Origin: Candidatus Gottesmanbacteria bacterium
GTDB taxonomy: Bacteria > Patescibacteriota > Microgenomatia > UBA10105 > UBA927
Direction: 5' to 3'
DNA length: 64,000 nucleotides
Assembly (NCBI GenBank): GCA_030679255.1
Contig: JAUXTO010000013.1
Coordinates: 190,189-254,188, forward strand
Shown here: positions 1,178 to 28,440 of the stretch, in pieces
Layout: every line of letters begins with the position of its first letter
Numbering within the stretch: the stretch's first letter is position 1
Translations under genes and position numbers: made by a program
Notes under the pieces: generated by a model
What the model saw: the letters and a program-made list of their open reading frames with translations, nothing else
The model's database searches: none
What the model was told of the DNA's origin: nothing

Positions 1178-2200
1178 TTAACTGTGCGCCATGCCAAATG
1201 ACTTCAGTGCATCAAAAAACCGTTGGCGGCGTTTTTCGTTCATGAGACCGGCTCTCGTCACAAATACTGTTTTCCATATCACGGTCCGGAGGCGGTAGAT
1301 ATCCATCTTCTCCTGAAAATGATCGGGGAGATTTCTTAAAGACTTGTATCCTGCGATAAGCATACTCTCCCGGGGAAAATGGGTCGCCCACGTCGGAGCC
1401 GAGGCAAGATCCAAAACCGGATCTCCAGACACTGCATTTTCCCAATCAAAAATACCGGTAATCCGGTCGCCGACGTGCATAAAATTATGATCGGCTAGAT
1501 CATGATGCACGAGCGTCCCTCTCGATATGTTCATAACAGGCCGATACTGATCAAAAAGTTTTCGTATTGAAGTTGCAATTTTTACGGTTATTTGCCCTGA
1601 ATCGGCGACAAACCGAAGATCATCATCCAGGCAAACTTCGATGTAATCAGGAAATGATTTTTTTGTTCCGATAAGATTTCCCTTTACCACCTGATCTTCA
1701 TGAAACCGACCAAATCCTTTAAGCTGAATATCTCCTAATCGCGCGACGTATTGACCCAACGCAAATGACATGCGGTCGTACTCATCTTTGGTGCCCGTAA
1801 AATGATCTTCGAGATCGCCCCCTGACAGGACTTCCTGTATCTGGAAATCGAATGGAAATACTTTTCTTGAAATGTCGACGTGGATGATGTGGTTCACAGG
1901 GATATCCAACACTGCGACCTTTTCGGTGATCAATTGTTCAAGCTTCATTTCCATCTCAGGCACCGGGATGTTGTAATTTGCGCGAAGAAGATACTCTCGA
2001 GATTGTTCCTTCGCGGTGACTCTATAGATTACATGCATCGTGCCGTAGGAATCCGGTCGAATCCATGAAGTGGCAGTCAATCCTAGCGCTTGCTTAAATA
2101 TTTTAGGAATCCAGGATACATCAAACAGTTCAAACCGTTTGGAAACAATATCAATCTCACTCTGGCTTCTATGCGCATGACGATAGTATATGTCGTTCAT
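1178..2200 (-). CDS. phosphotransferase family protein (APH/choline-kinase-like)
   Basis: HHDLADHNFM...DWENA catalytic/Brenner-like motifs of aminoglycoside phosphotransferase family. Confidence 0.6.
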   Translation of the reverse strand: MNDIYYRHAHRSQSEIDIVSKRFELFDVSWIPKIFKQALGLTATSWIRPDSYGTMHVIYRVTAKEQSREYLLRANYNIPVPEMEMKLEQLITEKVAVLDIPVNHIIHVDISRKVFPFDFQIQEVLSGGDLEDHFTGTKDEYDRMSFALGQYVARLGDIQLKGFGRFHEDQVVKGNLIGTKKSFPDYIEVCLDDDLRFVADSGQITVKIATSIRKLFDQYRPVMNISRGTLVHHDLADHNFMHVGDRITGIFDWENAVSGDPVLDLASAPTWATHFPRESMLIAGYKSLRNLPDHFQEKMDIYRLRTVIWKTVFVTRAGLMNEKRRQRFFDALKSFGMAHS

Positions 2201-2287: not shown

Positions 2288-2488
2288 TCACAATGTGAGC
2301 GATCGAGCTTTGGGAAGATATGCGATCTCTGGAGTAATGCGCGGATGAGTTTTTTCTAATTTTTTGAGAATTTCCGCTGCCCCCTCGCCAGTTTTGGCTG
2401 TGTACACCTTGCCTGCTGCTAAAATGACGTGTTTGCCTCGGTAACGGGAATTTTTAAAAATATTCATCATGGTAATAGCTTTTTTCAT
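2288..2488 (-). CDS. small DUF5678-like protein
   Basis: 66 aa; GKHVILAAGKVY...EGAAEILKKLEKTHP pattern; 4-bp overlap with upstream MFS gene. Confidence 0.35.
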   Translation of the reverse strand: MKKAITMMNIFKNSRYRGKHVILAAGKVYTAKTGEGAAEILKKLEKTHPRITPEIAYLPKARSLTL

Positions 2489-3669
2489 GATATCCGTATC
2501 CTACCACCATTAGCGCGTTCATGCAAAAAGATTTTCCGGTAGAAAAAGAGCGGGGTGAGCAGTAAAATATTGATGACAATGAGTGCAACACGCGCATCAA
2601 ATCTGTCCGCAATCAACCCCACGGCGATAGAGCATATACCAAACACTCCATGTCCCAGTAACGCATTCAAGGAACCCATGGTTGCCCGCTGACTCTGAGT
2701 AAATTCTCTTTGAAAGAGCGACCCAAGCGCCACCGACCCTACACCAAAAAGTAAGGAGGGTATACTCATGAGCGCGGGAGACAGTACGGTAGGAAAAAGC
2801 AACGCGACAAAATTTATGATTCTATTGGATAATATTTCAAAATTAAGGACCTTATACGGCGTATACTTTGTGATGACTTTGCCCGCAAAATAATAACTTA
2901 TAGCTGCTCCGATGTTTCCAAGAAAAGATGCAATGCCAATCGCCCACAACGGCCATAGGGTTATGACAAAGGCAGAACGCAGTAAATATCCCGATTCCCC
3001 AAGTCCAAACCGAAGCGCCGATGCTATGGATAGCATACGAAGTTTGCGGTTTTGCACAAAATACTTCATCGATACAGATAAATGATGGAGTACGTTGGTG
3101 CTTTCGCTAGAAATTCGCTTAGGCTCGACGAGAAGTAGCGCAATGATGAATGCTCCAATTTGAGGGATAACGGATGCCCATATGACGAGTGCGTAGGACC
3201 GCGCTGCCAAGATACCGCCTATCACTGCCGCAATTGCAAGAGCAAGCTGAAACATGGAGCCGGTTTTTCCCAAATAGGTATGATACTCGTTCTCTTTTCC
3301 AATTTCCCGAAGCGTGTCGTGAAGAAGTGCATCATTATTGCCGCTATAAAACGCCCGTGATAATCCTTGAAATAATGAACCGGTTGCCAATACCCAATAT
3401 GATCCGCCAATTGCGTATAATAAAACACATGCAACCGCAGATAAAGCTCCTAATATCGTTGTTTTCTTTCTCCCGACTAAATCTGAAATAATACCCGTCG
3501 GAACTTCAAACATTGCGGACGAAACGTATGCGATGGAAAAAATACTCATCCCCAACGCATACGAACCGGTGACATGGGCAAAGTAAAGAATGGCCACCGG
3601 CGCAAAAAACACAAAGTCCGTGCAAAAATTCAACCACGACAGGAGTTTGATATTTTTCGCAATATGCAT
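2485..3669 (-). CDS. MFS transporter
   Basis: 12-TM-like hydrophobic profile, DLVGRKK motif; start moved to Met at 3669 because the longer ORF overlaps the convergent zinc-ribbon gene. Confidence 0.65.
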   Translation of the reverse strand: MHIAKNIKLLSWLNFCTDFVFFAPVAILYFAHVTGSYALGMSIFSIAYVSSAMFEVPTGIISDLVGRKKTTILGALSAVACVLLYAIGGSYWVLATGSLFQGLSRAFYSGNNDALLHDTLREIGKENEYHTYLGKTGSMFQLALAIAAVIGGILAARSYALVIWASVIPQIGAFIIALLLVEPKRISSESTNVLHHLSVSMKYFVQNRKLRMLSIASALRFGLGESGYLLRSAFVITLWPLWAIGIASFLGNIGAAISYYFAGKVITKYTPYKVLNFEILSNRIINFVALLFPTVLSPALMSIPSLLFGVGSVALGSLFQREFTQSQRATMGSLNALLGHGVFGICSIAVGLIADRFDARVALIVINILLLTPLFFYRKIFLHERANGGRIRIS

Positions 3670-3787
3670 AGGGAAAGTATAACAGAAAATAAAGTTTAAA
3701 CAGCCAAATTCACGGTTTTTTGAACCTATTATCTTTTGATAAAAATCACTATTGCGTTTTGAAAGACTATCATGGTAATCTGACGGT

Positions 3788-4318
3788 ATGGCAGATGCTC
3801 CTGAAATGTGTCCTAAGTGCGGCGCGCCCTTGGGCGAAGTCGTGGAAACAGCAAGCGGCAAAAAGCTCCAACGCTGCACCAAAGGATCCTGGAATGCTCA
3901 AACCAAAAAAAATGAAGGGTGTGAGTATGTGAAGTGGCTCATGGTCGAGCCGAAGCCACTGGATGAAAAATGCCCCAAGTGCAGCTCGCCTCTCGTCCTG
4001 CAGGTTACCCGTTTTGGAAAGAAAATGAAGAAATGCTCTATGGGAGGGTGGGATAAAGATGCTAAAAAACCCACGGGGTGCGATTACGTCGAATGGATCA
4101 ATGGAACAACGGAACCACTGAAGGAAGCGTGCCCCGAATGCGGCAAACCGCTCGTACTCTTCACCACAAGCGCCGGAAAACGGATGATCAAATGTTCAAC
4201 CGCAGGTTGGGATAAAGCAGCAAGACAACCGACAGGCTGCGCCTACGTCCAATGGCTCAAACCCGGAGAAATGGCCAACAACGGAGAAGAAGGCCTCCCC
4301 CCCGATCCGGATCAATAA
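3788..4318 (+). CDS. triple zinc-ribbon protein (topoisomerase-I-type C4 zinc-finger repeats)
   Basis: three ~45-aa repeats CPxCxxPL...G(K)K..C..GxW...GCxYV(xW); resembles Topo IA C-terminal zinc ribbons; standalone. Confidence 0.55.
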   Translation: MADAPEMCPKCGAPLGEVVETASGKKLQRCTKGSWNAQTKKNEGCEYVKWLMVEPKPLDEKCPKCSSPLVLQVTRFGKKMKKCSMGGWDKDAKKPTGCDYVEWINGTTEPLKEACPECGKPLVLFTTSAGKRMIKCSTAGWDKAARQPTGCAYVQWLKPGEMANNGEEGLPPDPDQ

Positions 4319-4320
4319 AA

Positions 4321-4914
4321 TTATTTCCCTTGCTTTTTGCCAACCACACCCCGTCTCATGATGAGCATGATGCTAAAAAGTGCGTTTGCAAGAGCCCATG
4401 TCACGGGATAGAGCCATGTAATTATATTGTACTGTTGTAAGGCAAAAATGCTCAGTCCGTGACGGAAAGTGCTTAATGCATACGTAAAAAACGTCTCCGA
4501 GTAGGGCTTATTCCACGATTTTCTAATTGTAGGAATAAATCCGAACATCTCAACGGTGGATATGAGAATGATTGATACCACAGGCTGCTTGGCGACGATC
4601 CATATGAATATAGCGACAAGTGATAGAACAAAAAATACAGTATCTGAACGGGTGACATCCTTTTTTCCGTTACGCAATCCTAAAAAGAATATAAAGAAAG
4701 CGTTCAGAGCAATAATGAGGGTCATCCACGAACCAACTCCCGCTCCTGCGCTTACCTGAAGCGCGAAGGCGATCACTGTCGCCAATCCCCAGATAAACCA
4801 GGAATAGATATGCGGCGTTGTTTTCCCCTTATAAATATCAAGATAATACGGAATATATCCCACGATCGATAAAATCACTGTAATTATGCTGATGACCGTC
4901 TTATAATCCTGCAT
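4321..4914 (-). CDS. integral membrane protein (6 TM; PnuC/PQ-loop-like, uncertain)
   Basis: hydrophobic profile only. Confidence 0.4.
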   Translation of the reverse strand: MQDYKTVISIITVILSIVGYIPYYLDIYKGKTTPHIYSWFIWGLATVIAFALQVSAGAGVGSWMTLIIALNAFFIFFLGLRNGKKDVTRSDTVFFVLSLVAIFIWIVAKQPVVSIILISTVEMFGFIPTIRKSWNKPYSETFFTYALSTFRHGLSIFALQQYNIITWLYPVTWALANALFSIMLIMRRGVVGKKQGK

Positions 4915-4937
4915 GGGATGATTGTATCAGAAGGACA

Positions 4938-5717
4938 TTATGGTGTTTTGAAACTTCCGTCAATCCAAGCTATGTAATTATTTTCAATATTCGATGTAAT
5001 TTTTTTCGGATCTTTATTCCAAACTTCTGACACTTGCAACGGTTTTGCAAAATGAATTGTGATTACTGGTAATAAACGACTCATAAACGGAATAAGCCGA
5101 AGGCAATCCAAAAGCGACGTTCCTTGCAAATAAATCCTGGAAATATATGTAAATTTACGATTTTTGACTTTCCTCAACAGATGACTTACGCCGGGAAACC
5201 AATGCCCGTCAATGCTTCTTCTTCCGGGAAAAATAATCACCAACCCTCCTCCGTTGACGATCCGGGCTGCTCGTGCAATGCTCTTGATATTACGCTCATG
5301 TTCTTTTTCCGGCGTCAGAATTTTTTTTGGATGATACGTCTTTAGCAAATAACTCAAAATCTGATTATGATGATAAGGATTATTATGATGTTCAATGTAT
5401 ACGGGTATTAAATATCGGTCCAAATCTTTCACAATGCCTACCATCCTTGCGTTGACAATCAAATAGATATCTTTCCGCTCCGGTAGAGTGGCAATGAGCG
5501 CTATGACTTCCGCATCATCCGGGTGATTTGCCACAATTACGGCGGGTTTCGTTTGCAAAATATCCTTAACTTCATTGCTCAATCCTTGTACCACAAGCCT
5601 GGTGCGAGACCGTCTAACGACGTTGCTCATAGCTTGTATAAAACTATGACGTTTTATATCTTGATCAATTGCTTGAATTAAGTTGCCAATCAAAGGAAGG
5701 TCAGATAAAGTTTTCAT
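4938..5717 (-). CDS. lysophospholipid (1-acyl-glycerol-3-phosphate) acyltransferase family protein
   Basis: VANHPDD and FPGRRS motifs resembling PlsC HX4D / FPEGTR blocks. Confidence 0.55.
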   Translation of the reverse strand: MKTLSDLPLIGNLIQAIDQDIKRHSFIQAMSNVVRRSRTRLVVQGLSNEVKDILQTKPAVIVANHPDDAEVIALIATLPERKDIYLIVNARMVGIVKDLDRYLIPVYIEHHNNPYHHNQILSYLLKTYHPKKILTPEKEHERNIKSIARAARIVNGGGLVIIFPGRRSIDGHWFPGVSHLLRKVKNRKFTYISRIYLQGTSLLDCLRLIPFMSRLLPVITIHFAKPLQVSEVWNKDPKKITSNIENNYIAWIDGSFKTP

Positions 5718-5743
5718 ATAATCTTTGAATTATTTAATTCATA

Positions 5744-6541
5744 TTATTTGATAGGTATATAAATCTCAAAAAATTGTTTCGTTATATCCGTGTTTACTTT
5801 ACGATAGATTTCAAAATCCGGAATATCTTTCCTTATTTTAATTTTTCTTAATTCACAATACTTTTCAAGCTCTTTCCAAAATAGCGAAAGCAAACTCCCT
5901 GATCCGTTATGGGTATAGGTCAATACTTTCCCCGGATCAAACTCCATACATTTAACTGTATTCTGATACTCCCCCTTCACTTTCAAATCATTACCGGCCA
6001 AGGCTCCTATCTTTATCCTACTCTTCTTCGGACGATACCCTTGCTCTTCAAAAATTGCCAATGTCGTAAAGGCATCATCCTTATGTACAAACATCTTGGA
6101 AAGTTCTTGACAATACTCTCCTATCCTAGCGTACGCGCCCACTTTTTCGATGTAGTAGACACCAAATGGCGGCAATACCTTCACTTCAGGATTAACCATC
6201 GTTCCATTCGCCTTGATATTCTTTTGAAACTTTATTAGATTATGTAAATTGAATTCGAGTACCCGAATCTCTTTTTCAATAAATTCTTTTTTATCATCAA
6301 AAAGCTTTGCTAAATCACCATTTGTACGTAAATATTTTTTCATCTCGCCCAAGGATACTCCCAAATTAGATAAAAGAAGAATCCTTTGGTAATCAAGAAT
6401 TTGACGCTGGTCATAATATCGGTACTTGGAGCTATTGACTCGAACAGGCTTGAGCACGCCCTTCTGGTCATAAAAAAGGATCGTCCTTTTGGTCGTGGAG
6501 GCAAGTTTGGCAAATTCTCCGGCGGTGATCAAATTATTCAT
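5744..6541 (-). CDS. MerR-family transcriptional regulator with C-terminal GyrI-like/BmrR-type effector domain
   Basis: N-terminal MerR HTH (ITAGEFAKLASTTKRTILFYDQKGVLKP), 265 aa with effector-binding C-terminus. Confidence 0.7.
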   Translation of the reverse strand: MNNLITAGEFAKLASTTKRTILFYDQKGVLKPVRVNSSKYRYYDQRQILDYQRILLLSNLGVSLGEMKKYLRTNGDLAKLFDDKKEFIEKEIRVLEFNLHNLIKFQKNIKANGTMVNPEVKVLPPFGVYYIEKVGAYARIGEYCQELSKMFVHKDDAFTTLAIFEEQGYRPKKSRIKIGALAGNDLKVKGEYQNTVKCMEFDPGKVLTYTHNGSGSLLSLFWKELEKYCELRKIKIRKDIPDFEIYRKVNTDITKQFFEIYIPIK

Positions 6542-6543
6542 AT

Positions 6544-6574
6544 TTGACTATAACGTAACGTTATGCTTTATTAT
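6544..6574 (+). promoter_or_regulatory. MerR-type promoter: TTGACT -19 bp spacer containing perfect 15-bp palindrome ATAACGTAACGTTAT - TATTAT
   Basis: seen in sequence; -10 lies 6 nt upstream of ATG 6581, so likely leaderless; overlaps divergent merR start. Confidence 0.55.
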
Positions 6575-6580
6575 AGCACG

Positions 6581-8827
6581 ATGAACAACATAATCATAAA
6601 AGGAGCGAGAGAAAATAATCTTAAGTGTATCAATATTGAGATCCCCAGAAATAAGATCGTCTGTTTCGTGGGCGTCTCCGGCTCAGGAAAATCCACAATT
6701 GCTTTTGATATCATCGCAAGAGAAGGACAAAGACAGTATTTTGAGTCTCTCCCCTCTTTTGCCAGACGGTATCTTCAAAAAAGCAATCGTCCCGAAGTCG
6801 ACGAAATAAAAGGCGTATCAGCGTCGATCATCATAAGCCAAGACCGGGTACACGGCAGCCCGCGCTCCACAATAGGGACATTGACAGAAAGCTACACGTA
6901 CTTGCGGCTCCTTTACTCGCGCGTAGGTCTGCCATCCATGGATTCTTCGTACTACTCATTTAACCATCCGTATGGGGCCTGTAAGAAATGCAAAGGGTTA
7001 GGGCGGGCAGTAGAAGTGAATATCGACAAGGTGATAGATAAGAGTAAAAGCCTAAATGAAGGAGCATTAGTCCCAAGTGACTGGTACGTGGGAGGAAGAC
7101 AATGGAGCATCGTCAAGGCCTCGGGGTACTTTGCGATGGATAAAAAGTTACGGGATTATGACGCTGAGGAACTGGATCGGATTCTCTATGCTCCCCCGGA
7201 AATGTTGCAGTCTGTGAGTGGTGAGTTCATCGACCGATGGACCTTCCAAGGGATCGTTCACCGAATAATTCACCGCAATAACAACACGCATCGCAGCCTT
7301 TCAGAACATGATATGAAGTACTTTGACTTGGTAGATTGCCTGGAATGTCATGGTGGTCGTCTCAATACTAAGTCGCTAGACGTTAAGCTGAATGGTAAGA
7401 ATATAGGCGAGGTGGGCAATATGCCACTCGACGAGTGTTTAAACTTTGTCAAATGCATCGATCACAAGAATGCTGACGTCATCAAACCCAGATTAATTGA
7501 TCAACTTGAAGGGTTAATCAGTGTCGGCGTCGGATATTTGTCTTTAAACAGATCGTCAGATACATTATCCGGAGGAGAAGCTCAACGAGTAAAGATGGCC
7601 CGCCAACGAGGATGCGACCTGGTTGAGACCGTGTATGTATTGGACGAACCGACCGCCGGACTCCATCCCCGGGATGTATCAAAAGTCGTAGAAAACTTAA
7701 AAAGACTTCGTGACAACGGAAATAGTGTCATTGTCGTTGAGCATGACGAGACTATCATCAGGAACGCTGACTATTTAGTCGAAGTCGGTCCGGGTGGAGG
7801 AAAAAAAGGCGGAGAAATTGTCGCGACAGGTACCATTGATGATCTTTTAACAAACCCCAACTCGCTAACCGGAAAGTACCTTAGTGGGAATCAAAAGATC
7901 AAAGCCGCGCCTAATTATAGAAAAGCTTCGGGTGAATTAAACGTTGTTCATGCAACGCGACACAACTTAAAGAATCTCAATGTAACTATCCCGACCGGAA
8001 TTTTAATGGCTCTTACGGGAGTGTCCGGATCAGGAAAAAGCTCGCTCGTTGAGGAGATAGTAAACCAACACGACGAAAAAATCGTATTAATCGACCAGAG
8101 TCAGGTCGGAGCAAACAAGAGAGGCTGTATCGCGACCTACGTGGGTGCGTTTGACCGGATACGCACATACTTTGCCTATGAGCATCGCATGCACCCGAGC
8201 TTTTTTAGCTTTAACTCTCACGGAGGTTGCGAAGCATGTAAGGGAGTGGGATATAGAGATATGGAAATGAACTTTTTAGGCGATGTCAAAATAACGTGTG
8301 AAAGTTGTGGCGGGTCCCGGTATAAAAACAAGGTATTGCGGTATACGTATCACGGTAAAAACGTGGCTGAAATTTTGACCATGACGGCAAGCGAGATCGG
8401 TGACTTTTTCAGAGACCCGGAAATACAAACGCAGATGAAACTCCTCGACGAAGTCGGTTTGGATTACATGGAAATGGGTCAGACACTCGATACTCTCTCC
8501 GGCGGTGAATCCCAAAGACTGAAGCTGGCGAGCAAACTCCAAGCAAAGGGAGAATTTTATATACTGGATGAACCAACATCAGGACTGCACTTTGCCGACG
8601 TAGAAAAGTTATTGGTGCTTCTGAATAAATTAGTCGATAACGGTAATACCGTGCTCGTCGTAGAACACAATCTCGACGTCATAAAAAATGCCGATTGGGT
8701 CATCGACCTCGGCCCTGAAGGAGGAGACAGAGGGGGCCACATAGTCGCCCAGGGCACTCCTGCTCAGATTACAAAAATAGAAACATCTCATACAGGGAAG
8801 TACTTACAAAAAATTCTTATCACATAA
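6581..8827 (+). CDS. UvrA class II-like excinuclease ABC subunit A paralogue (UvrA2/DrrC-like)
   Basis: IKGARENNLK...VSGSGKST N-terminus, two ABC ATPase modules with zinc-finger Cys pairs; ~750 aa, shorter than canonical 940-aa UvrA. Confidence 0.75.
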   Translation: MNNIIIKGARENNLKCINIEIPRNKIVCFVGVSGSGKSTIAFDIIAREGQRQYFESLPSFARRYLQKSNRPEVDEIKGVSASIIISQDRVHGSPRSTIGTLTESYTYLRLLYSRVGLPSMDSSYYSFNHPYGACKKCKGLGRAVEVNIDKVIDKSKSLNEGALVPSDWYVGGRQWSIVKASGYFAMDKKLRDYDAEELDRILYAPPEMLQSVSGEFIDRWTFQGIVHRIIHRNNNTHRSLSEHDMKYFDLVDCLECHGGRLNTKSLDVKLNGKNIGEVGNMPLDECLNFVKCIDHKNADVIKPRLIDQLEGLISVGVGYLSLNRSSDTLSGGEAQRVKMARQRGCDLVETVYVLDEPTAGLHPRDVSKVVENLKRLRDNGNSVIVVEHDETIIRNADYLVEVGPGGGKKGGEIVATGTIDDLLTNPNSLTGKYLSGNQKIKAAPNYRKASGELNVVHATRHNLKNLNVTIPTGILMALTGVSGSGKSSLVEEIVNQHDEKIVLIDQSQVGANKRGCIATYVGAFDRIRTYFAYEHRMHPSFFSFNSHGGCEACKGVGYRDMEMNFLGDVKITCESCGGSRYKNKVLRYTYHGKNVAEILTMTASEIGDFFRDPEIQTQMKLLDEVGLDYMEMGQTLDTLSGGESQRLKLASKLQAKGEFYILDEPTSGLHFADVEKLLVLLNKLVDNGNTVLVVEHNLDVIKNADWVIDLGPEGGDRGGHIVAQGTPAQITKIETSHTGKYLQKILIT

Positions 8828-8858
8828 GCAACTCATGTTCTTGCGTTTGTAACGCACT

Positions 8859-19374: not shown

Positions 19375-20340
19375 TCACGAAGCTGGGACTTCCCATCGGT
19401 GGTTAGCAAATACCCAATCGATGAGCTTGGTGGTATCGATGAAGCGGTCTTTACTTTTGAGAACCACAATAATCACACGATGTCCCCCGCGCTCAACGAG
19501 CGTCACAAGGTTCTCCCCCGATTCCTCAGTCCACCCGGTTTTAATGCCGCCGACACCGGGAATTTTACCCAAAAGTGCGTTGACGTTTGTGAGATTATGA
19601 AAATACGTATGGGTGACGTCAGAAATGGTAATCTGCGGGATAGCGACCATTTTGACAATCGTTTTATTGGAAAGGGCAACTCCCGCCAGTCGCGCGAGAT
19701 CCATAGGAGTCATTTTATGCGTCGGATCATCAAAGCCTACGGGATTGGTAAAATGTGATTGGGTTAGATGGAGCGTCTTTGCTTTCTCATTCATGGCCAC
19801 GACGAACGCTCCCACTCCACCAGGATAGTTTTCGGCGAGCGCATAGGCAGCATCATTACCGGACTGGATAAGCGCGCCGTACAGAAGATTTTCAACCGTA
19901 ATCCGCTCGCCTGCCACAAGCTTCATCGAGGCCCCGCTATTCTGGAGTGTTTTAACCGTCATAACGTCATCCAAAGAAAACATATCAAGGGTCACGAGTG
20001 CGGTCAAAATTTTTGTTGTCGATGCAGGAGAAAATGATTCATAACTATTGCGCTGAAAAAGCACGACTCCCGAGTTAACATCTACTATGACGACGCCTCC
20101 CGCCGTGACCTCATCACCGGGATGCACACCAGTGACATTGGTAGGATACGGCGCAATCGAAGGAAGAGGAAATGGGATGGTAAAATCGCTTGAAGTGTTT
20201 CCCGGAGTCATCATCAATAAACGGTTCTGTCCTGGGTACCAAAGAAAAAATCCGGCAAGAATAACAAGGTACAAAATTTTATGCCATGCACCTCGAATCC
20301 ACGGACTGGAATGCTGGTAGACAATTTTATCTTTGGGCAT
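19375..20340 (-). CDS. D-alanyl-D-alanine carboxypeptidase (S11 peptidase, PBP5-like)
   Basis: SxxK (ASTTK), SGN (QSGND), KTG (IKTGWT) motifs. Confidence 0.8.
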   Translation of the reverse strand: MPKDKIVYQHSSPWIRGAWHKILYLVILAGFFLWYPGQNRLLMMTPGNTSSDFTIPFPLPSIAPYPTNVTGVHPGDEVTAGGVVIVDVNSGVVLFQRNSYESFSPASTTKILTALVTLDMFSLDDVMTVKTLQNSGASMKLVAGERITVENLLYGALIQSGNDAAYALAENYPGGVGAFVVAMNEKAKTLHLTQSHFTNPVGFDDPTHKMTPMDLARLAGVALSNKTIVKMVAIPQITISDVTHTYFHNLTNVNALLGKIPGVGGIKTGWTEESGENLVTLVERGGHRVIIVVLKSKDRFIDTTKLIDWVFANHRWEVPAS

Positions 20341-25297: not shown

Positions 25298-27022
25298 TTA
25301 CACGATATGGATGTCTTTAATTTTAAGTTGAAGCCTGGAGCTGCCATTCCAGGTGTTCATGTCAATGGTATAAGCAAGGTCCACTTGTGCATCCTTCTGT
25401 AATGATCCATAGAGACTTCCTTGGTTAAAGGCTATTGCGTCCAAGAGATGAGTCGAATGGGGCTCATGGATCTCATGGGTCAGATGAATAGATGGGGAAA
25501 CCTTTAATTTGAGGTGCTTGCCGGTCGCGCCGACGAGGCGTGCTTCTTTGACAAGGAGGCATCTTGTCACAAAGACCGGCTCGGGATTACCGAAACCGAA
25601 TGGTTGAAATTGTTGGAGTGCCGTATATAACTCCATCGTCACGAACTCTAACGGAATTTCCGAATCGATTTTAAGCGAACGTGTCAGCATATCTTCCGTA
25701 ATTTCCTTTTTTGCCAATTGCTCGAGCCGCGCCTGCAACGATTCTAGATGCTTATTCTCAACAGTAAACCCTGCAGCCATCGGGTGTCCGCCGACGTCAA
25801 TGAGAATATCGCTGCACGCGCGGATCGCCTCGACAATATTAAATCCGCTGATCGATCGCGCCGATGCTTTACTGATACTCTCTCCTTTGCTTGCCACGAT
25901 CGCCGGCAGGTAATATTCTTCCATAAGTTTTCCCGCGACCAATCCGATCACGCCTGGGTTGTAGGATTCGTGGGAAACAAATAATAATTTCAATGATGAA
26001 TGCTGAATGATGAATGATGAAACAAGATTTTTGGCGTGGAGGACCGTCTCTTCTGTCAATTTTTGCCGGTCGCGGTTGGTCATTCCCAATTTTTCGGCAA
26101 GCATACTCGCTTTATCTTTTTGTTTCGTGCATAAAAGCCGGAGCGCGTCCATGGCGTGTTCGAGCCTGCCCATGGCGTTCAAGCGCGGAGCAAGCATGTG
26201 AGAAACGGTAAATACATCCAGAGCCCCACGGGTCAATCCTGCATCGGTCATGAGCGCCTCGAGCCCCACCCGTTTCGTATCATTGAGTGCAGCCAATCCA
26301 TATTTGACGATGGAACGGTTGGGACCGGTGAGCTGCACTAAATCTGCAATCGTTCCGATAGCCGCAAGAGCGATATGATCATTTAATGCTGAATGCTGAA
26401 TGCTCAATGATGAATGCTTTTGTAATTCCTTTGATAAAAACCAGGAAACGCCGGAACCAGAAAGCTTCGTCGTATGGACAATCGTGCAGTCCGGAAGTTT
26501 GTCGGGCTTGACGTGGTGGTCCGTAACAATGACTTCTATCCCCTTCTCTCGGGCATACTCTACTTTTTCCCATGCCGTAATCCCATGGTCAACGGTGATA
26601 ATGAGCGTTGGATCAAATTGTGCGCGTACTGCGTCTATTCCTTTTCGTGACAATCCATACCCTTCCTCTACCCTGTGGGGAATGTAAGGCATTGCACTCG
26701 CCCCCAAACTATGGAGCGTCTCCCACATGATGGCCCCCGCAGTGATGCCATCTGCGTCATAGTCTGCATAGACGACTATGGATTCTTTGTCCTGAATGGC
26801 TTTTTGGATGCGTTTGATGGCTTTGGAAAGCGAGGCCTTGTCTATACCAACGTCAGAGGCGGTAAGTTTGGAAGGATCGGGAGAATTCAGAAAGAGTTCG
26901 ATATCTTTTCTTGTCTTGAGCCCCCTATTTTTTAATAAAATCTTGACAATGTCTTCAACTTTCCCAGCCATAGGCTGGTCCGCCTCTGGCGGAGACTTGG
27001 CGGCAATTTCCCATTTCTTCAT
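25298..27022 (-). CDS. recJ: single-stranded-DNA-specific exonuclease RecJ
   Basis: DHH (VYADYDADGITAG, VDHGI) and DHHA1 motifs, C-terminal OB fold; contains two in-frame heptamer-repeat tracts. Confidence 0.85.
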   Translation of the reverse strand: MKKWEIAAKSPPEADQPMAGKVEDIVKILLKNRGLKTRKDIELFLNSPDPSKLTASDVGIDKASLSKAIKRIQKAIQDKESIVVYADYDADGITAGAIMWETLHSLGASAMPYIPHRVEEGYGLSRKGIDAVRAQFDPTLIITVDHGITAWEKVEYAREKGIEVIVTDHHVKPDKLPDCTIVHTTKLSGSGVSWFLSKELQKHSSLSIQHSALNDHIALAAIGTIADLVQLTGPNRSIVKYGLAALNDTKRVGLEALMTDAGLTRGALDVFTVSHMLAPRLNAMGRLEHAMDALRLLCTKQKDKASMLAEKLGMTNRDRQKLTEETVLHAKNLVSSFIIQHSSLKLLFVSHESYNPGVIGLVAGKLMEEYYLPAIVASKGESISKASARSISGFNIVEAIRACSDILIDVGGHPMAAGFTVENKHLESLQARLEQLAKKEITEDMLTRSLKIDSEIPLEFVTMELYTALQQFQPFGFGNPEPVFVTRCLLVKEARLVGATGKHLKLKVSPSIHLTHEIHEPHSTHLLDAIAFNQGSLYGSLQKDAQVDLAYTIDMNTWNGSSRLQLKIKDIHIV

Positions 27023-27045
27023 GGGCTCTATGATATCATACGGCC

Positions 27046-28440
27046 ATGATATCCCTTCCCAAAACAGCCCAGACTGTCATCGATACCCTCAAAAAAGCGG
27101 GGTTTGAAGCGTATGCAGTGGGAGGATCAGTGCGGGACACGATCATGGGAAGACCAACGAAAGGTTGGGACTTTACGACCAACGCAAAACCTGAGGAAGT
27201 ACTTGCGCTTTTTCCGGATAGTTTCTATGACAATCAGTTTGGGACGGTTGGAGTGAAAATATATAAGTCGTCAGTCGTCAGTCGTCAGTCGTCAGATGAA
27301 ATCGAAGATATCTACGAAATAACCACGTATAGAAGCGAGAAGGGATACACGGATCGGAGGCATCCGGATACCGTCATCTGGGGAAATACCATTGAGGAAG
27401 ATCTTGCCCGACGCGATTTTACGATCAATGCAATCGCCTCCGACGGACAAAAGCTCATCGATCCCTATGATGGACAAAAGGATCTCCATACAAAAATCAT
27501 CCGGTCAGTCGGTGATCCTAAAGATCGATTTGCAGAAGACGCCCTCCGTATGATGCGGGCCGTGAGACTGGCCGCTGAACTAGGATTTAGTATCGAAGAG
27601 TCAACTCTCGCCGGAATTACAACAAACGCCGGACTTTTGACGAATATTTCTCTGGAACGCATACGAGACGAACTTCTCAGGATCCTCGCCGCACAATTTG
27701 CTTCTGACGCAATCCTCGTGCTCAAAGCAACCGGCCTTCTTTCGCACATTATCCCGGAATTTGACGCGGCGTTTAGTACGCCACAAAAAAGTCCCAAACG
27801 CCACCATATCTACGATGTTGGTACCCACAGCGTGATGGCACTTAAATTTTGTCCCTCTGCTGATCCCATTGTACGGCTCGCGACACTTCTCCATGACATC
27901 GGTAAACCAAAAACCTTTCATAAAGACGAGACCGGTCTCATCACGTTTTATAACCATGAAGTCGCGGGAACGCGAATGGTGAGAACCATTGTAGAGCGCC
28001 TTCGGCTTTCTAAAAAACAAGCAGAACTCGTCCTCACGCTCGTCCGCTGGCATCAATTCAGTGTCGACGAACGCCAAACAGACGCGGCTCTCCGGCGGTT
28101 CATACGCCGCGTAGGCAAAGAGAATCTGGAAGCTATGTTGGCCCTACGGATCGGAGACCGTTTAGGTGGCGGAGCGCTCGAGACGTCGTGGCGGCTTGAA
28201 CTTTATAAAAAACGTCTGGTGGAGGTTCAAAAACAACCCTTTACGGTCCACGACCTCCTCGTCGACGGCCATGATGTGATGAGCGAGCTCAGGGTGAAAC
28301 CCGGACCCATCATTGGAAAAATCTTAGATCAATTGTTCGCCGAAGTTGAAAAAGGCACACTCACAAATAAACGGGAGGCTCTGTTGAATCGAATAAAAGA
28401 GCTTAAATCTACGAATTATGAATCTACGAATAATAATTAG
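27046..28440 (+). CDS. cca: CCA-adding tRNA nucleotidyltransferase with HD domain
   Basis: AYAVGGSVRD...GWDFTT PolBeta-NT head, HD motif LLHDIGK. Confidence 0.8.
   Translation: MISLPKTAQTVIDTLKKAGFEAYAVGGSVRDTIMGRPTKGWDFTTNAKPEEVLALFPDSFYDNQFGTVGVKIYKSSVVSRQSSDEIEDIYEITTYRSEKGYTDRRHPDTVIWGNTIEEDLARRDFTINAIASDGQKLIDPYDGQKDLHTKIIRSVGDPKDRFAEDALRMMRAVRLAAELGFSIEESTLAGITTNAGLLTNISLERIRDELLRILAAQFASDAILVLKATGLLSHIIPEFDAAFSTPQKSPKRHHIYDVGTHSVMALKFCPSADPIVRLATLLHDIGKPKTFHKDETGLITFYNHEVAGTRMVRTIVERLRLSKKQAELVLTLVRWHQFSVDERQTDAALRRFIRRVGKENLEAMLALRIGDRLGGGALETSWRLELYKKRLVEVQKQPFTVHDLLVDGHDVMSELRVKPGPIIGKILDQLFAEVEKGTLTNKREALLNRIKELKSTNYESTNNN

Follow-up and report, generated by a model that had tools for sequence, protein, structure and literature searches.

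A 64-kb stretch of DNA (the window) from the uncultured, groundwater-type Candidatus Gottesmanbacteria contains, back to back, a gene for a BmrR-like transcription regulator and a gene for a shortened UvrA-like DNA-binding ATPase. Does the first gene control the second, and against what would the ATPase act? The two genes form a strictly conserved unit, in which the regulator, acting on a textbook MerR-type promoter, most likely switches on the ATPase. Both proteins belong to known families, joined here in a new wiring; the arrangement is tidy and unsurprising. No publication linking a MerR regulator with a UvrA paralogue was found among open-access papers and preprints.

Gene organisation and conservation

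The regulator gene (positions 5744–6541, minus strand) encodes 265 amino acids plus stop. The class II uvrA-like gene (uvrA2; 6581–8827, plus strand) encodes 748 amino acids plus stop and was assigned from the NCBIfam UvrA profile, PDB matches and alignment. A divergent pair of this kind had been described in the original prediction; its sequence features are all in place, and their conservation across loci strengthens the case. In all 13 loci whose sequence covers the upstream side, the regulator gene is located upstream of, and divergent from, the uvrA-like gene, and the pair is present together with its promoter and operator geometry in all 15 Patescibacteria loci examined, which represent different lineages. 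Among the matches listed, 31 contigs are apparently common to the homologue lists of the two proteins.

Across the loci examined, no gene other than these two is conserved, and the flanks vary. The neighbours in the window encode an APH-family kinase, an MFS transporter, a Zn-ribbon protein, an L,D-transpeptidase and a dehydrogenase; inspection of neighbouring genes and of the flanks across loci revealed neither a biosynthetic cluster nor an efflux pump within the module. The module measures 3.1 kb, with two genes and one operator. Base composition was examined for signs of recent horizontal transfer: the GC content of the module follows that of its flanks in 12 of 13 loci, the only deviating one (L006) having a module GC of 39.7% and flanks of 51.2%.

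The pair also resembles parts of an anti-phage defence system, MADS, of which it could be a fragment or relative instead of a xenobiotic module. In PADLOC, the helix-turn-helix of the regulator matches mad1 (E=8e-8), and the ATPase matches mad3 (E=5.6e-81) and mad8 (E=2.8e-31). However, MADS is an eight-gene operon whose mandatory members are MAD6–8, MAD1 and MAD3 counting as accessory owing to their likeness to widespread proteins (bioRxiv 10.1101/2023.03.30.534895), whereas here only two genes are conserved, an operon with the mandatory MAD6, MAD7 and MAD8 is lacking, and a methyltransferase and other mad genes are absent among the neighbours. We consider a kinship with this defence system extremely unlikely. 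The PADLOC matches were rejected as generic helix-turn-helix and ABC-ATPase similarity, those to mad3 and mad8 falling within one and the same protein.

Structure of the regulator

The expectation of a MerR-family regulator with a GyrI-like effector domain holds, and NCBI likewise names the protein a MerR family regulator. From the amino- to the carboxy-terminus, it consists of a winged helix-turn-helix (residues 6–72; 6326–6526, minus strand), a long predicted dimerisation helix (residues 85–112; 6206–6289, minus strand) and a GyrI-like small-molecule-binding domain (residues 117–265; 5747–6193, minus strand), the traits of the BmrR/EcmrR subgroup of the family. The first of these is matched by the Pfam profiles MerR_1 (PF13411, E=2.8e-13) and PF00376 (E=4.2e-9), and the last by PF06445 at 29.7 bits (cutoff 26). 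When 42–47 homologues are aligned, the helix-turn-helix residues T16–T20, Y24, Y40, R41 and Y43 are invariant; across the 15 loci, the identity between regulators is 38–82%.

The AlphaFold (AF2) model of the monomer is confident (pLDDT 91.9), with the helix of residues 85–112 assigned by DSSP in a block of pLDDT 93–97. The top full-length Foldseek matches of the model are BrlR, EcmrR and BmrR, with STM3175 also among the best; all are MerR plus GyrI-like proteins. Matches to PDB sequences (SkgA, BmrR, EcmrR and BrlR) cover residues 5–92. The GyrI-like domain by itself resembles CTR107, CtaZ, the carboxy-terminal domains of EcmrR and BrlR, and SbmC, with TM values of about 0.7; these structural ranks discriminate neither in favour of a cyclopropanoid hydrolase nor of a binder.

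Promoter and operator of the uvrA-like gene

The intergenic region, put at 40 bp in the original prediction, measures 39 bp (6542–6580) and has the promoter content ascribed to it. The plus-strand uvrA2 promoter starts with a -35 hexamer, TTGACT (6544–6549), followed by a spacer of 19 bp (6550–6568) and a -10 hexamer, TATTAT (6569–6574), identified from the sequence and from comparison of loci. The latter is separated from the ATG by 6 nt (6575–6580). Inside the spacer lies the perfect 15-bp palindrome that had been predicted, ATAACGTAACGTTAT, at 6550–6564: two 7-nt arms (ATAACGT and ACGTTAT) flank a single central A:T pair at 6557, giving the dyad ATAACGTaACGTTAT, of 7+1+7 organisation.

The window contains a single match to the composite pattern TTGACW-N3-ACGTNACG-N8-TATWAT, and 100 dinucleotide shuffles yielded none, even with two mismatches allowed; the search revealed no further copy of the palindrome with fewer than three mismatches. 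The layout TTGAC[TA]-19 bp-TAT[TAG]AT, with the dyad in the same register, recurs at all 15 loci compared, which were drawn from different lineages of Patescibacteria; one locus has TATATT as the second hexamer. TTGAC is invariant throughout, and in all 20 of the 31 promoter and operator positions are. This is the layout of promoters of the MerR subgroup as defined in PMC8113463, and the MerR operator architecture of the original prediction thus extends to every locus compared. A 19-bp spacer, a pseudo-palindrome and unpairing of the central A:T pair are the documented activation mechanism of MerR, BmrR and EcmrR (PMC8113463; PMC9909328). The regulatory anatomy is well supported, and the conservation of the hexamers suggests that the promoter is used by the host RNA polymerase.

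The regulator gene has a predicted promoter of its own, with an extended -10 element, TGCTATAAT, in the minus-strand reading (6570–6578), which overlaps the -10 box of uvrA2 by 5 bp. Transcription from it would begin near 6563 and pass through the operator. In loci with longer intergenic regions, a minus-strand -35 hexamer TTGACA (TTGACT in two loci), a spacer of 16–18 bp and TATAAT or TATTAT are present in the matching place.

Some members of the MerR family are repressors only, and the regulator might likewise be solely a repressor or autoregulator, with the 19-bp-spacer element not activatable and uvrA2 expressed constitutively or from elsewhere. A promoter scan with a rule of 16–18 bp for the spacer indeed omits the 19-bp site. 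However, all 15 loci keep near-consensus hexamers at exactly 19 bp with the dyad in fixed register, a pattern that makes little sense unless hexamers and bound regulator work together, and the 39-bp intergenic region offers no space for another promoter. Pure repression is in our view very unlikely, and activation of uvrA2 by the regulator is the reading carried forward.

The start codon of uvrA2 was placed at ATG 6581 because the NCBI protein P0001 is 748 amino acids long and 100% identical, because the amino-terminal sequence MNNIIIKGA is conserved, and because the upstream ATG is missing from one relative (L004). The start of the longest open reading frame, ATG 6563, which is located inside the palindrome, was rejected. 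Since the ATG lies only 6 nt past the -10 box, the uvrA2 mRNA is probably leaderless, with the A of the ATG as predicted transcription start. Downstream of the gene, a weak terminator-like hairpin (8842–8856, plus strand) has a poor T-tract, and the count of such sites is near shuffle expectation.

The UvrA-like protein

Both ABC ATPase modules of the protein are intact, with two copies each of the Walker A, LSGGE, Walker B and H-loop motifs and a match to Pfam ABC_tran. About 145 residues are missing, matching UvrA profile positions ~118–264: residues 119–746 map to positions 264–941 of the NCBIfam profile, and class I UvrA chains in the PDB align only from about residue 256–278 onwards. In the alignment, the missing segment corresponds to zinc module 1 and the UvrB-binding domain. 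The close homologues are without PF17760, which is present in canonical UvrAs of the same phylum. Profile, PDB matches and alignment agree that the UvrB-binding domain has not been retained, and the description of a UvrA-like protein without the extra domains of canonical UvrA is borne out.

The protein contains exactly four CxxC motifs, at residues 134, 253, 550 and 573. The first two (C134/C137 and C253/C256) form zinc module 2 around an insertion domain of ~115 amino acids (6980–7348, plus strand; alignment and motif scan), and the others (C550/C553 and C573/C576) form zinc module 3 (8228–8308, plus strand; motif scan). The retention of zinc modules 2 and 3, of the insertion domain and of both ATPase modules, together with the absence of zinc module 1 and of the UvrB-binding domain, makes the protein a class II (IIa) UvrA by the zinc-module and insertion-domain definition of PMC9328131 and PMC10192343.

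The original prediction had spoken of a UvrA2/DrrC type. The class II architecture stands, but a specific closeness to DrrC or Ecm16 does not, as class I UvrA structures score higher (672 bits) than Ecm16 (583) and D. radiodurans UvrA2 (507). The clade is isolated: in a representative search, one other 50%-identity cluster is found at 63% identity and the remainder at 48% or less, with the top ranks occupied by double-length UvrA fusions (~1,600–2,300 amino acids) through summed scores, so that the ranking does not show the nearest short UvrAs. For this genome, the label of paralogue given in the original prediction is provisional. Among the matches listed (at most 120 per list), no class I UvrA apparently shares a contig with the module, a comparison that carries no weight either way.

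The higher score with class I UvrA than with Ecm16 lends some weight to a different role, that of an accessory lesion sensor, or even of the main UvrA of a reduced genome, with the regulator responding to stress or to a signal from within the cell, for instance an oxidised metabolite or a change in supercoiling. Such a role would fit with the small UV phenotypes of class II uvrA mutants of Xanthomonas and Pseudomonas and the radiation induction of D. radiodurans uvrA2 (PMC9328131), and with the YafY/WYL-type regulator that adjoins a staphylococcal plasmid copy. Nor was a second uvrA, class I included, found within the 64-kb window. Against this, canonical UvrA is widespread in Microgenomates, a canonical uvrB-uvrA operon being present in a related Roizmanbacteria MAG; a protein without a UvrB-binding domain has no known route into nucleotide excision repair; and the effector domain of the regulator is of the xenobiotic-binding GyrI-like type. 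A repair factor is thus unlikely, without being far-fetched.

Proposed mechanism and function

The best explanation, and one we hold to be reasonably probable, is a ligand-activated induction of the DNA-distortion type, by which a class II UvrA would protect DNA from DNA-binding xenobiotics without the help of UvrB. A regulator dimer of the BmrR/EcmrR type would bind the dyad at 6550–6564 in the over-long 19-bp spacer and, without ligand, keep the uvrA2 promoter inactive. The bound dimer would also block its own minus-strand promoter, because the two -10 boxes overlap and the regulator transcript must cross the operator. Upon binding of a hydrophobic, planar or cationic xenobiotic to the GyrI-like domain, the dimer would kink and under-twist the spacer at the central A:T pair (6557), realigning the -35 and -10 hexamers, so that RNA polymerase could initiate at about 6581 and produce the leaderless uvrA2 mRNA.

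The product would be a double-ABC ATPase that forms dimers, has a groove for DNA and an insertion domain, and has no way to recruit UvrB. It may recognise drug-distorted DNA and use ATP to remove or neutralise the bound compound, independently of UvrB and UvrC. This putative function is drawn by analogy with Ecm16 and DrrC, which are not especially close relatives; the case for drug tolerance is therefore built on the architecture they have in common and on the kind of regulator. Ecm16 and DrrC give ATP-dependent resistance to DNA intercalators independently of nucleotide excision repair (PMC9328131; PMC10192343), a role of the insertion domain has been described for Ecm16 (PMC10192343), and drrC is, judging from the title of a reference, drug-induced. 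The roles of class II UvrAs outside antibiotic producers are unclear and partly UV-related (PMC9328131).

In a bolder version, the promoter itself would take part in sensing. Two 5'-ACGT-3' steps lie in the conserved core of the operator; CpG-specific (bis)intercalators, echinomycin among them, bind by preference to ACGT, and each occupied site unwinds the DNA by about 20 degrees (PMC9328131). Drug bound within the 19-bp spacer would under-twist the DNA in the direction in which an activated MerR dimer does, so that spacer-bound drug and free drug at the GyrI-like domain could jointly induce the ATPase that removes these drugs from DNA, in a feedback loop that would in effect read how much drug sits on the DNA. 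The module would then serve ultra-small Patescibacteria as a dedicated means of defence against antibiotics that bind DNA and are produced by their neighbours or hosts. This version is speculative, and we give it very little probability.

With induction through the GyrI-like domain as the preferred reading, a promoter of well-understood logic would tie a class II UvrA directly to a sensor of small molecules; the ligand of the regulator would therefore point to the target of the ATPase. The module is compact enough for transfer into E. coli or B. subtilis as reporter plus effector. Its strong conservation in Microgenomates and related Patescibacteria, which have very small genomes, suggests an important place in their lifestyle for protection from compounds that bind DNA.

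Comparison with known systems

BmrR-bmr of Bacillus subtilis, EcmrR of E. coli and BrlR of P. aeruginosa are multidrug-sensing MerR activators with the same order of winged helix-turn-helix, antiparallel coiled coil and GyrI-like domain, and with an operator dyad in a 19-bp spacer around a central A:T pair. The regulator described here is only about 18–20% identical to them, sequence searches aligning the helix-turn-helix alone. Where their target is an efflux pump, here it is a UvrA-like DNA-binding ATPase, and the regulator gene is divergent with an overlapping promoter.

In this last respect the module resembles the mer systems of Tn21 and Tn501, in which, as here, the overlapping divergent promoters (merR and merT) share one dyad set in a 19-bp spacer. 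With the dyad in common, one bound dimer can turn on the structural gene while shutting off its own gene. As in Tn21 mer, the predicted minus-strand promoter of the regulator overlaps that of the structural gene, but here the overlap reaches the -10 boxes themselves. The MerR proteins of Tn21 and Tn501 have a metal-binding cysteine site, in contrast to the GyrI-like effector domain of the present regulator.

On the ATPase side, Ecm16, DrrC and other class IIa UvrAs of Streptomyces are likewise without the UvrB-binding domain and zinc module 1, and keep the insertion domain, zinc modules 2 and 3 and two ABC ATPase sites; a plasmid homologue from Streptomyces globisporus C-1027 has about 41% identity. 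Unlike the self-resistance genes drrC and ecm16, the gene described here is located outside any biosynthetic cluster, and its regulator is different. The class II UvrAs of Firmicutes and Deinococcus (from a Macrococcus chromosome, from plasmid records of Staphylococcus, Listeria and Bacillus cereus, and UvrA2 of D. radiodurans) have the same deletion boundaries and similar insertion-domain motifs, and in a neighbour-joining tree they form the sister group of the Patescibacteria clade. Their identity is 41–45%, however, and a MerR gene is not adjacent: in the plasmid and Firmicute contexts inspected, class II uvrA has no MerR neighbour, the nearby regulator being of the YafY/WYL or MarR type or there being none. 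The link with MerR is therefore lineage-specific.

An independent parallel is provided by a Bacillota MAG (L040). There the regulator has a DNA-binding domain of another family, the genes are on one strand and the UvrA keeps the cysteines of zinc module 1, but the same association recurs, the gene of an AraC-HTH plus GyrI-like regulator immediately preceding that of a UvrA without the UvrB-binding domain.

Gene models

The regulator ORF occupies positions 5744–6541 on the minus strand (265 amino acids), while uvrA2, the UvrA-like ORF, runs on the plus strand from 6581 to 8827 (748 amino acids). The source is a MAG of Candidatus Gottesmanbacteria (Patescibacteria/CPR, Microgenomates), and each protein has a 100% identical NCBI entry on the same 307,295-bp contig, under the names "MerR family transcriptional regulator" and "excinuclease ABC subunit UvrA". 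The longest mechanical ORF for the UvrA-like protein starts at 6563, inside the palindrome; this start was rejected in favour of 6581, because the database protein has 748 residues, because its N-terminus, MNNIIIKGARENNLK, is the one conserved in UvrA and because the close relative L004 has ATA, not ATG, at the upstream position.

Structure of the regulator

Pfam places a MerR_1 domain at residues 6–72 (E=2.8e-13) and a GyrI-like domain at residues 117–265 (29.7 bits, against a 26-bit cutoff). When the sequence is searched against the PDB, the HTH alone aligns, to SkgA, BmrR, EcmrR and BrlR. The AlphaFold model, made from 42 homologues, has high confidence (mean pLDDT 91.9) and consists of a wHTH, a long helix (residues 85–112) and a C-terminal domain with a duplicated beta-alpha-beta-beta unit. 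Full-length Foldseek matches in the PDB are BrlR (E=2e-16), EcmrR (2e-14), BmrR (3e-13) and STM3175, which binds albicidin; domain-level matches are CTR107 and Rho-tag (rhodamine), CtaZ (closthioamide), SAV2435 (TPP), lin2189, Rob and SbmC. The DNA-reading residues T16–T20, Y24, Y40, R41 and Y43 are invariant in 42–47 regulator homologues. Pfam, AlphaFold and Foldseek thus agree with the original prediction of a 265-residue MerR-family regulator with a GyrI-like domain and, by its domains and modelled structure, the protein is predicted to be a xenobiotic-sensing MerR regulator of the BmrR/EcmrR type. Toxins directed against DNA or gyrase are bound by several of these structural neighbours, which would fit uvrA2 as a target.

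Structure of the UvrA-like protein

The match to the NCBIfam UvrA profile is split in two, with profile positions ~118–264 skipped. Class I UvrA structures (2r6f, 3pih and 9gxk) align from chain residue ~256–278 on. When the uvrA2 product is aligned with a canonical UvrA from Roizmanbacteria, a further two class I proteins and three short UvrAs, the ~150 absent residues coincide exactly with zinc module 1 (the first CxxC...CxxC pair) and the UvrB-binding domain, in line with the predicted protein of about 750 residues without the extra canonical domains. Two Walker A motifs (GVSGSGKS), two LSGGE signatures, two Walker B motifs and two H-loops are intact. There are exactly four CxxC motifs, forming zinc module 2 (C134/C137 and C253/C256), which encloses an insertion domain of ~115 amino acids, and zinc module 3 (C550/C553 and C573/C576). 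Among the matches listed with precomputed Pfam domains, PF17760 (UvrA_inter) is missing from close homologues and present in every canonical Microgenomates UvrA. Judged by sequence, the protein fits the published class IIa UvrA definition (PMC9328131, PMC10192343).

Bit scores are 672 for class I structures, 583 for Ecm16 and 507 for D. radiodurans UvrA2, and special kinship to the characterised class II proteins is not apparent. In a neighbour-joining tree, which is distance-based only, the Patescibacteria clade has Macrococcus class II UvrA as its sister and stands separate from the canonical UvrA of its own phylum. Within a representative library of 1.84 billion proteins, one other 50%-identity cluster lies at 63% identity to this clade, the rest at 48% or less. 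The metagenomes also contain very many double-length UvrAs (~1,550–2,340 amino acids, tandem UvrA units, for example protein P0245), which rank above single-length relatives in the whole-library search.

No second uvrA, uvrB or uvrC is present within the 64-kb window. One Roizmanbacteria MAG has a canonical uvrB-uvrA operon, and class I UvrA occurs widely across Microgenomates; in the genome studied here, uvrA2 is a candidate paralogue.

Conservation of the gene pair

A scan of the genome collection yielded 15 loci with UvrA-like genes 68–85% identical, from Roizman-, Ames-, Beckwith-, Dojka- and 'Parcu'-bacteria and unclassified Patescibacteria MAGs. A regulator homologue (38–82% identity) lies divergently upstream in all 13 loci with upstream sequence, and the truncated start of one is visible in a fourteenth, L011. 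Among the compared loci, the window shares flanking genes with L004 only, and all-against-all comparison of flanking ORFs revealed no third conserved gene; the pair is therefore a strict two-gene module in varied genomic contexts. Among the matches listed, the UvrA-like and regulator homologues share at least 31 contigs, matched by size, and from this size fingerprint we infer that the two genes are likewise linked on many further metagenomic contigs.

The UvrA-like protein is 79–89% identical across more than 60 clusters of Roizman-, Ames- and Gottesmanbacteria among the matches listed, while for the canonical UvrA of one Roizmanbacterium identity falls to ~60% past the four closest matches listed. 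Either unusually strong selection or spread of the module between Microgenomates lineages may account for the high identity. In L006 (CP011210.1, Beckwithbacteria GW2011_GWC1_49_16, 3146–6250), the sole locus with a clear compositional mismatch, the module has a GC content of 39.7% against 51.2% in the flanks, suggestive of a recent horizontal acquisition there. The module is also present in MAGs labelled 'uncultured Gammaproteobacteria' or 'Bathyarchaeia' (L002, L004, L012 and P0189); L004 is syntenic with the window, and these labels probably reflect wrong taxonomic assignment or bin contamination.

Promoter and operator

The intergenic region (6542–6580) had been put at 40 bp and is 39 bp long, reading AT-TTGACT-ATAACGTAACGTTATGCTT-TATTAT-AGCACG, then ATG; its other elements are as predicted. 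Sequence reading places the uvrA2 -35 box TTGACT at 6544–6549 and the -10 box TATTAT at 6569–6574, both on the plus strand, with a spacer of exactly 19 bp and a gap of 6 nt to the ATG. The perfect 15-bp palindrome is likewise present in the spacer (6550–6564), with two perfect 7-nt arms and a central A:T pair at 6557. The composite promoter/dyad pattern has one match in 64 kb and, with two mismatches allowed, none in 100 dinucleotide-preserving shuffles; no second dyad copy with fewer than three mismatches was found in the window. The built-in promoter scan misses this promoter only because its spacers are restricted to 16–18 bp.

The predicted MerR operator architecture recurs in 15 of 15 loci, as TTGAC[TA], a 19-bp spacer and TAT[TAG]AT (in L011 the second hexamer is TATATT), with the dyad beginning directly after the -35 box in each. 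Comparison of the loci gives 20 invariant positions out of 31 in the promoter/operator and a half-site AT[ATG]AC[GC]T. That the regulator acts as a repressor only is hard to reconcile with this layout, since the conserved hexamers at 19 bp speak against it. A 19-bp spacer, a pseudo-palindrome and unpairing of a central A:T belong to the documented mechanism of BmrR, EcmrR and CueR (PMC8113463; PMC9909328).

The distance from the -10 box to the ATG is 6–8 nt in four loci (the window, L004, L009 and L013), about 24–36 nt in the remaining ones and rather more in L010. The longer versions carry a near-perfect regulator promoter on the minus strand, with a -35 box (TTGACA; TTGACT in two loci), a 16–18 bp spacer and TATAAT or TATTAT, the regulator -10 box overlapping that of uvrA2. 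The short versions, including the window, are without a regulator -35 box and carry an extended -10, TGCTATAAT. The regulator transcript is predicted to start near 6563 and to run across the operator; thus, one bound dimer could control both genes, and the sequences imply that the two promoters could not be occupied simultaneously. In the Tn21/Tn501 merR/merT region, too, one dimer governs two overlapping divergent promoters. The regulatory anatomy of the module is well supported. More speculatively, the two ACGT steps of the operator could let a DNA-bound drug add to spacer under-twisting, ACGT being the preferred echinomycin site (PMC9328131).

Predicted leaderless starts and surroundings

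As the -10 box ends at 6574, uvrA2 transcription would be expected to start at ~6581, the A of the ATG, giving a predicted leaderless mRNA. An SD-like motif precedes only ~10 of 56 long ORFs of the window, and -10-like TAnnnT boxes are concentrated ~6 nt ahead of start codons (the 4–9 nt bin contains 7, against ~2.9 expected), for example upstream of 4914(-), 42867(-), 43677(-), 58243(+) and 19375–20340(-). This suggests that leaderless mRNAs may be common in this Gottesmanbacteria genome. The divergent ORFs 25298–27022(-) and 27046–28440(+) are ~23 bp apart (27023–27045), and a palindromic box, TATGATATCATA, is located just upstream of both starts; its appearance is that of a further divergent promoter, shared or overlapping.

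An APH-family phosphotransferase (1178–2200, minus strand) and an MFS transporter (2485–3882, minus strand), both encoded a few kb away, hint at a small resistance-like neighbourhood; neither is conserved beside the module in other loci. The most conserved neighbour, 95% identical in L004, is a 176-residue protein (3788–4318, plus strand) with three topoisomerase-I-type C4 zinc ribbon repeats (PF01396 and related).

Comparison with known systems

Neither the two protein families nor the promoter logic departs from the textbook, and family-level annotation already exists for both genes. In the open-access papers and preprints searched, three features are apparently undescribed: the coupling of class II UvrA to a BmrR-type sensor, the strict two-gene cassette across Patescibacteria and the overlapping divergent promoter pair. 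No MerR neighbour of class II uvrA was seen in the Macrococcus, Listeria, Staphylococcus, Clostridium and B. cereus loci inspected; the gene is accompanied there by a YafY/WYL or a MarR regulator, or by no relevant neighbour. In L047 (Staphylococcus xylosus plasmid p14BME10-1, 1895–8175), class II uvrA is divergent from a YafY/WYL-type regulator; the plasmid is mobilisable, with an MDR-type MFS transporter and mph(C) beside the gene, suggesting that staphylococcal class II UvrA moves together with resistance genes.

In a Bacillota MAG (L040), a regulator with an AraC-HTH and a GyrI-like domain lies directly upstream of another UvrA without UvrB-binding domain; this independent pairing supports a recurrent functional link. 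L040 (1519–5960) and L029 (4001–7533) represent a separate clade of such UvrAs (787–827 amino acids) that keeps the zinc module 1 cysteines, and in both a beta-lactamase-like serine hydrolase gene follows. Membership of MADS, raised by PADLOC similarity to mad1, mad3 and mad8, was rejected because only two genes are conserved; MADS calls for MAD6-8 in an operon of eight genes, and MAD1 and MAD3 are regarded as non-specific by the authors who described it (bioRxiv 10.1101/2023.03.30.534895).

The module offers a practical handle on the role of class II UvrA proteins, of which those from non-producers have weak, partly UV-related phenotypes (PMC9328131). Most simply read, the GyrI-like sensor and the UvrA-like protein would constitute xenobiotic-inducible DNA protection, a reading tempered by these phenotypes and by the lack of a MerR neighbour in the Firmicutes loci inspected; we infer effector activity for the UvrA-like protein. 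It shares its architecture with Ecm16 and DrrC, self-resistance proteins of Streptomyces; drrC is reportedly induced by daunorubicin. [quoted passage not shown]
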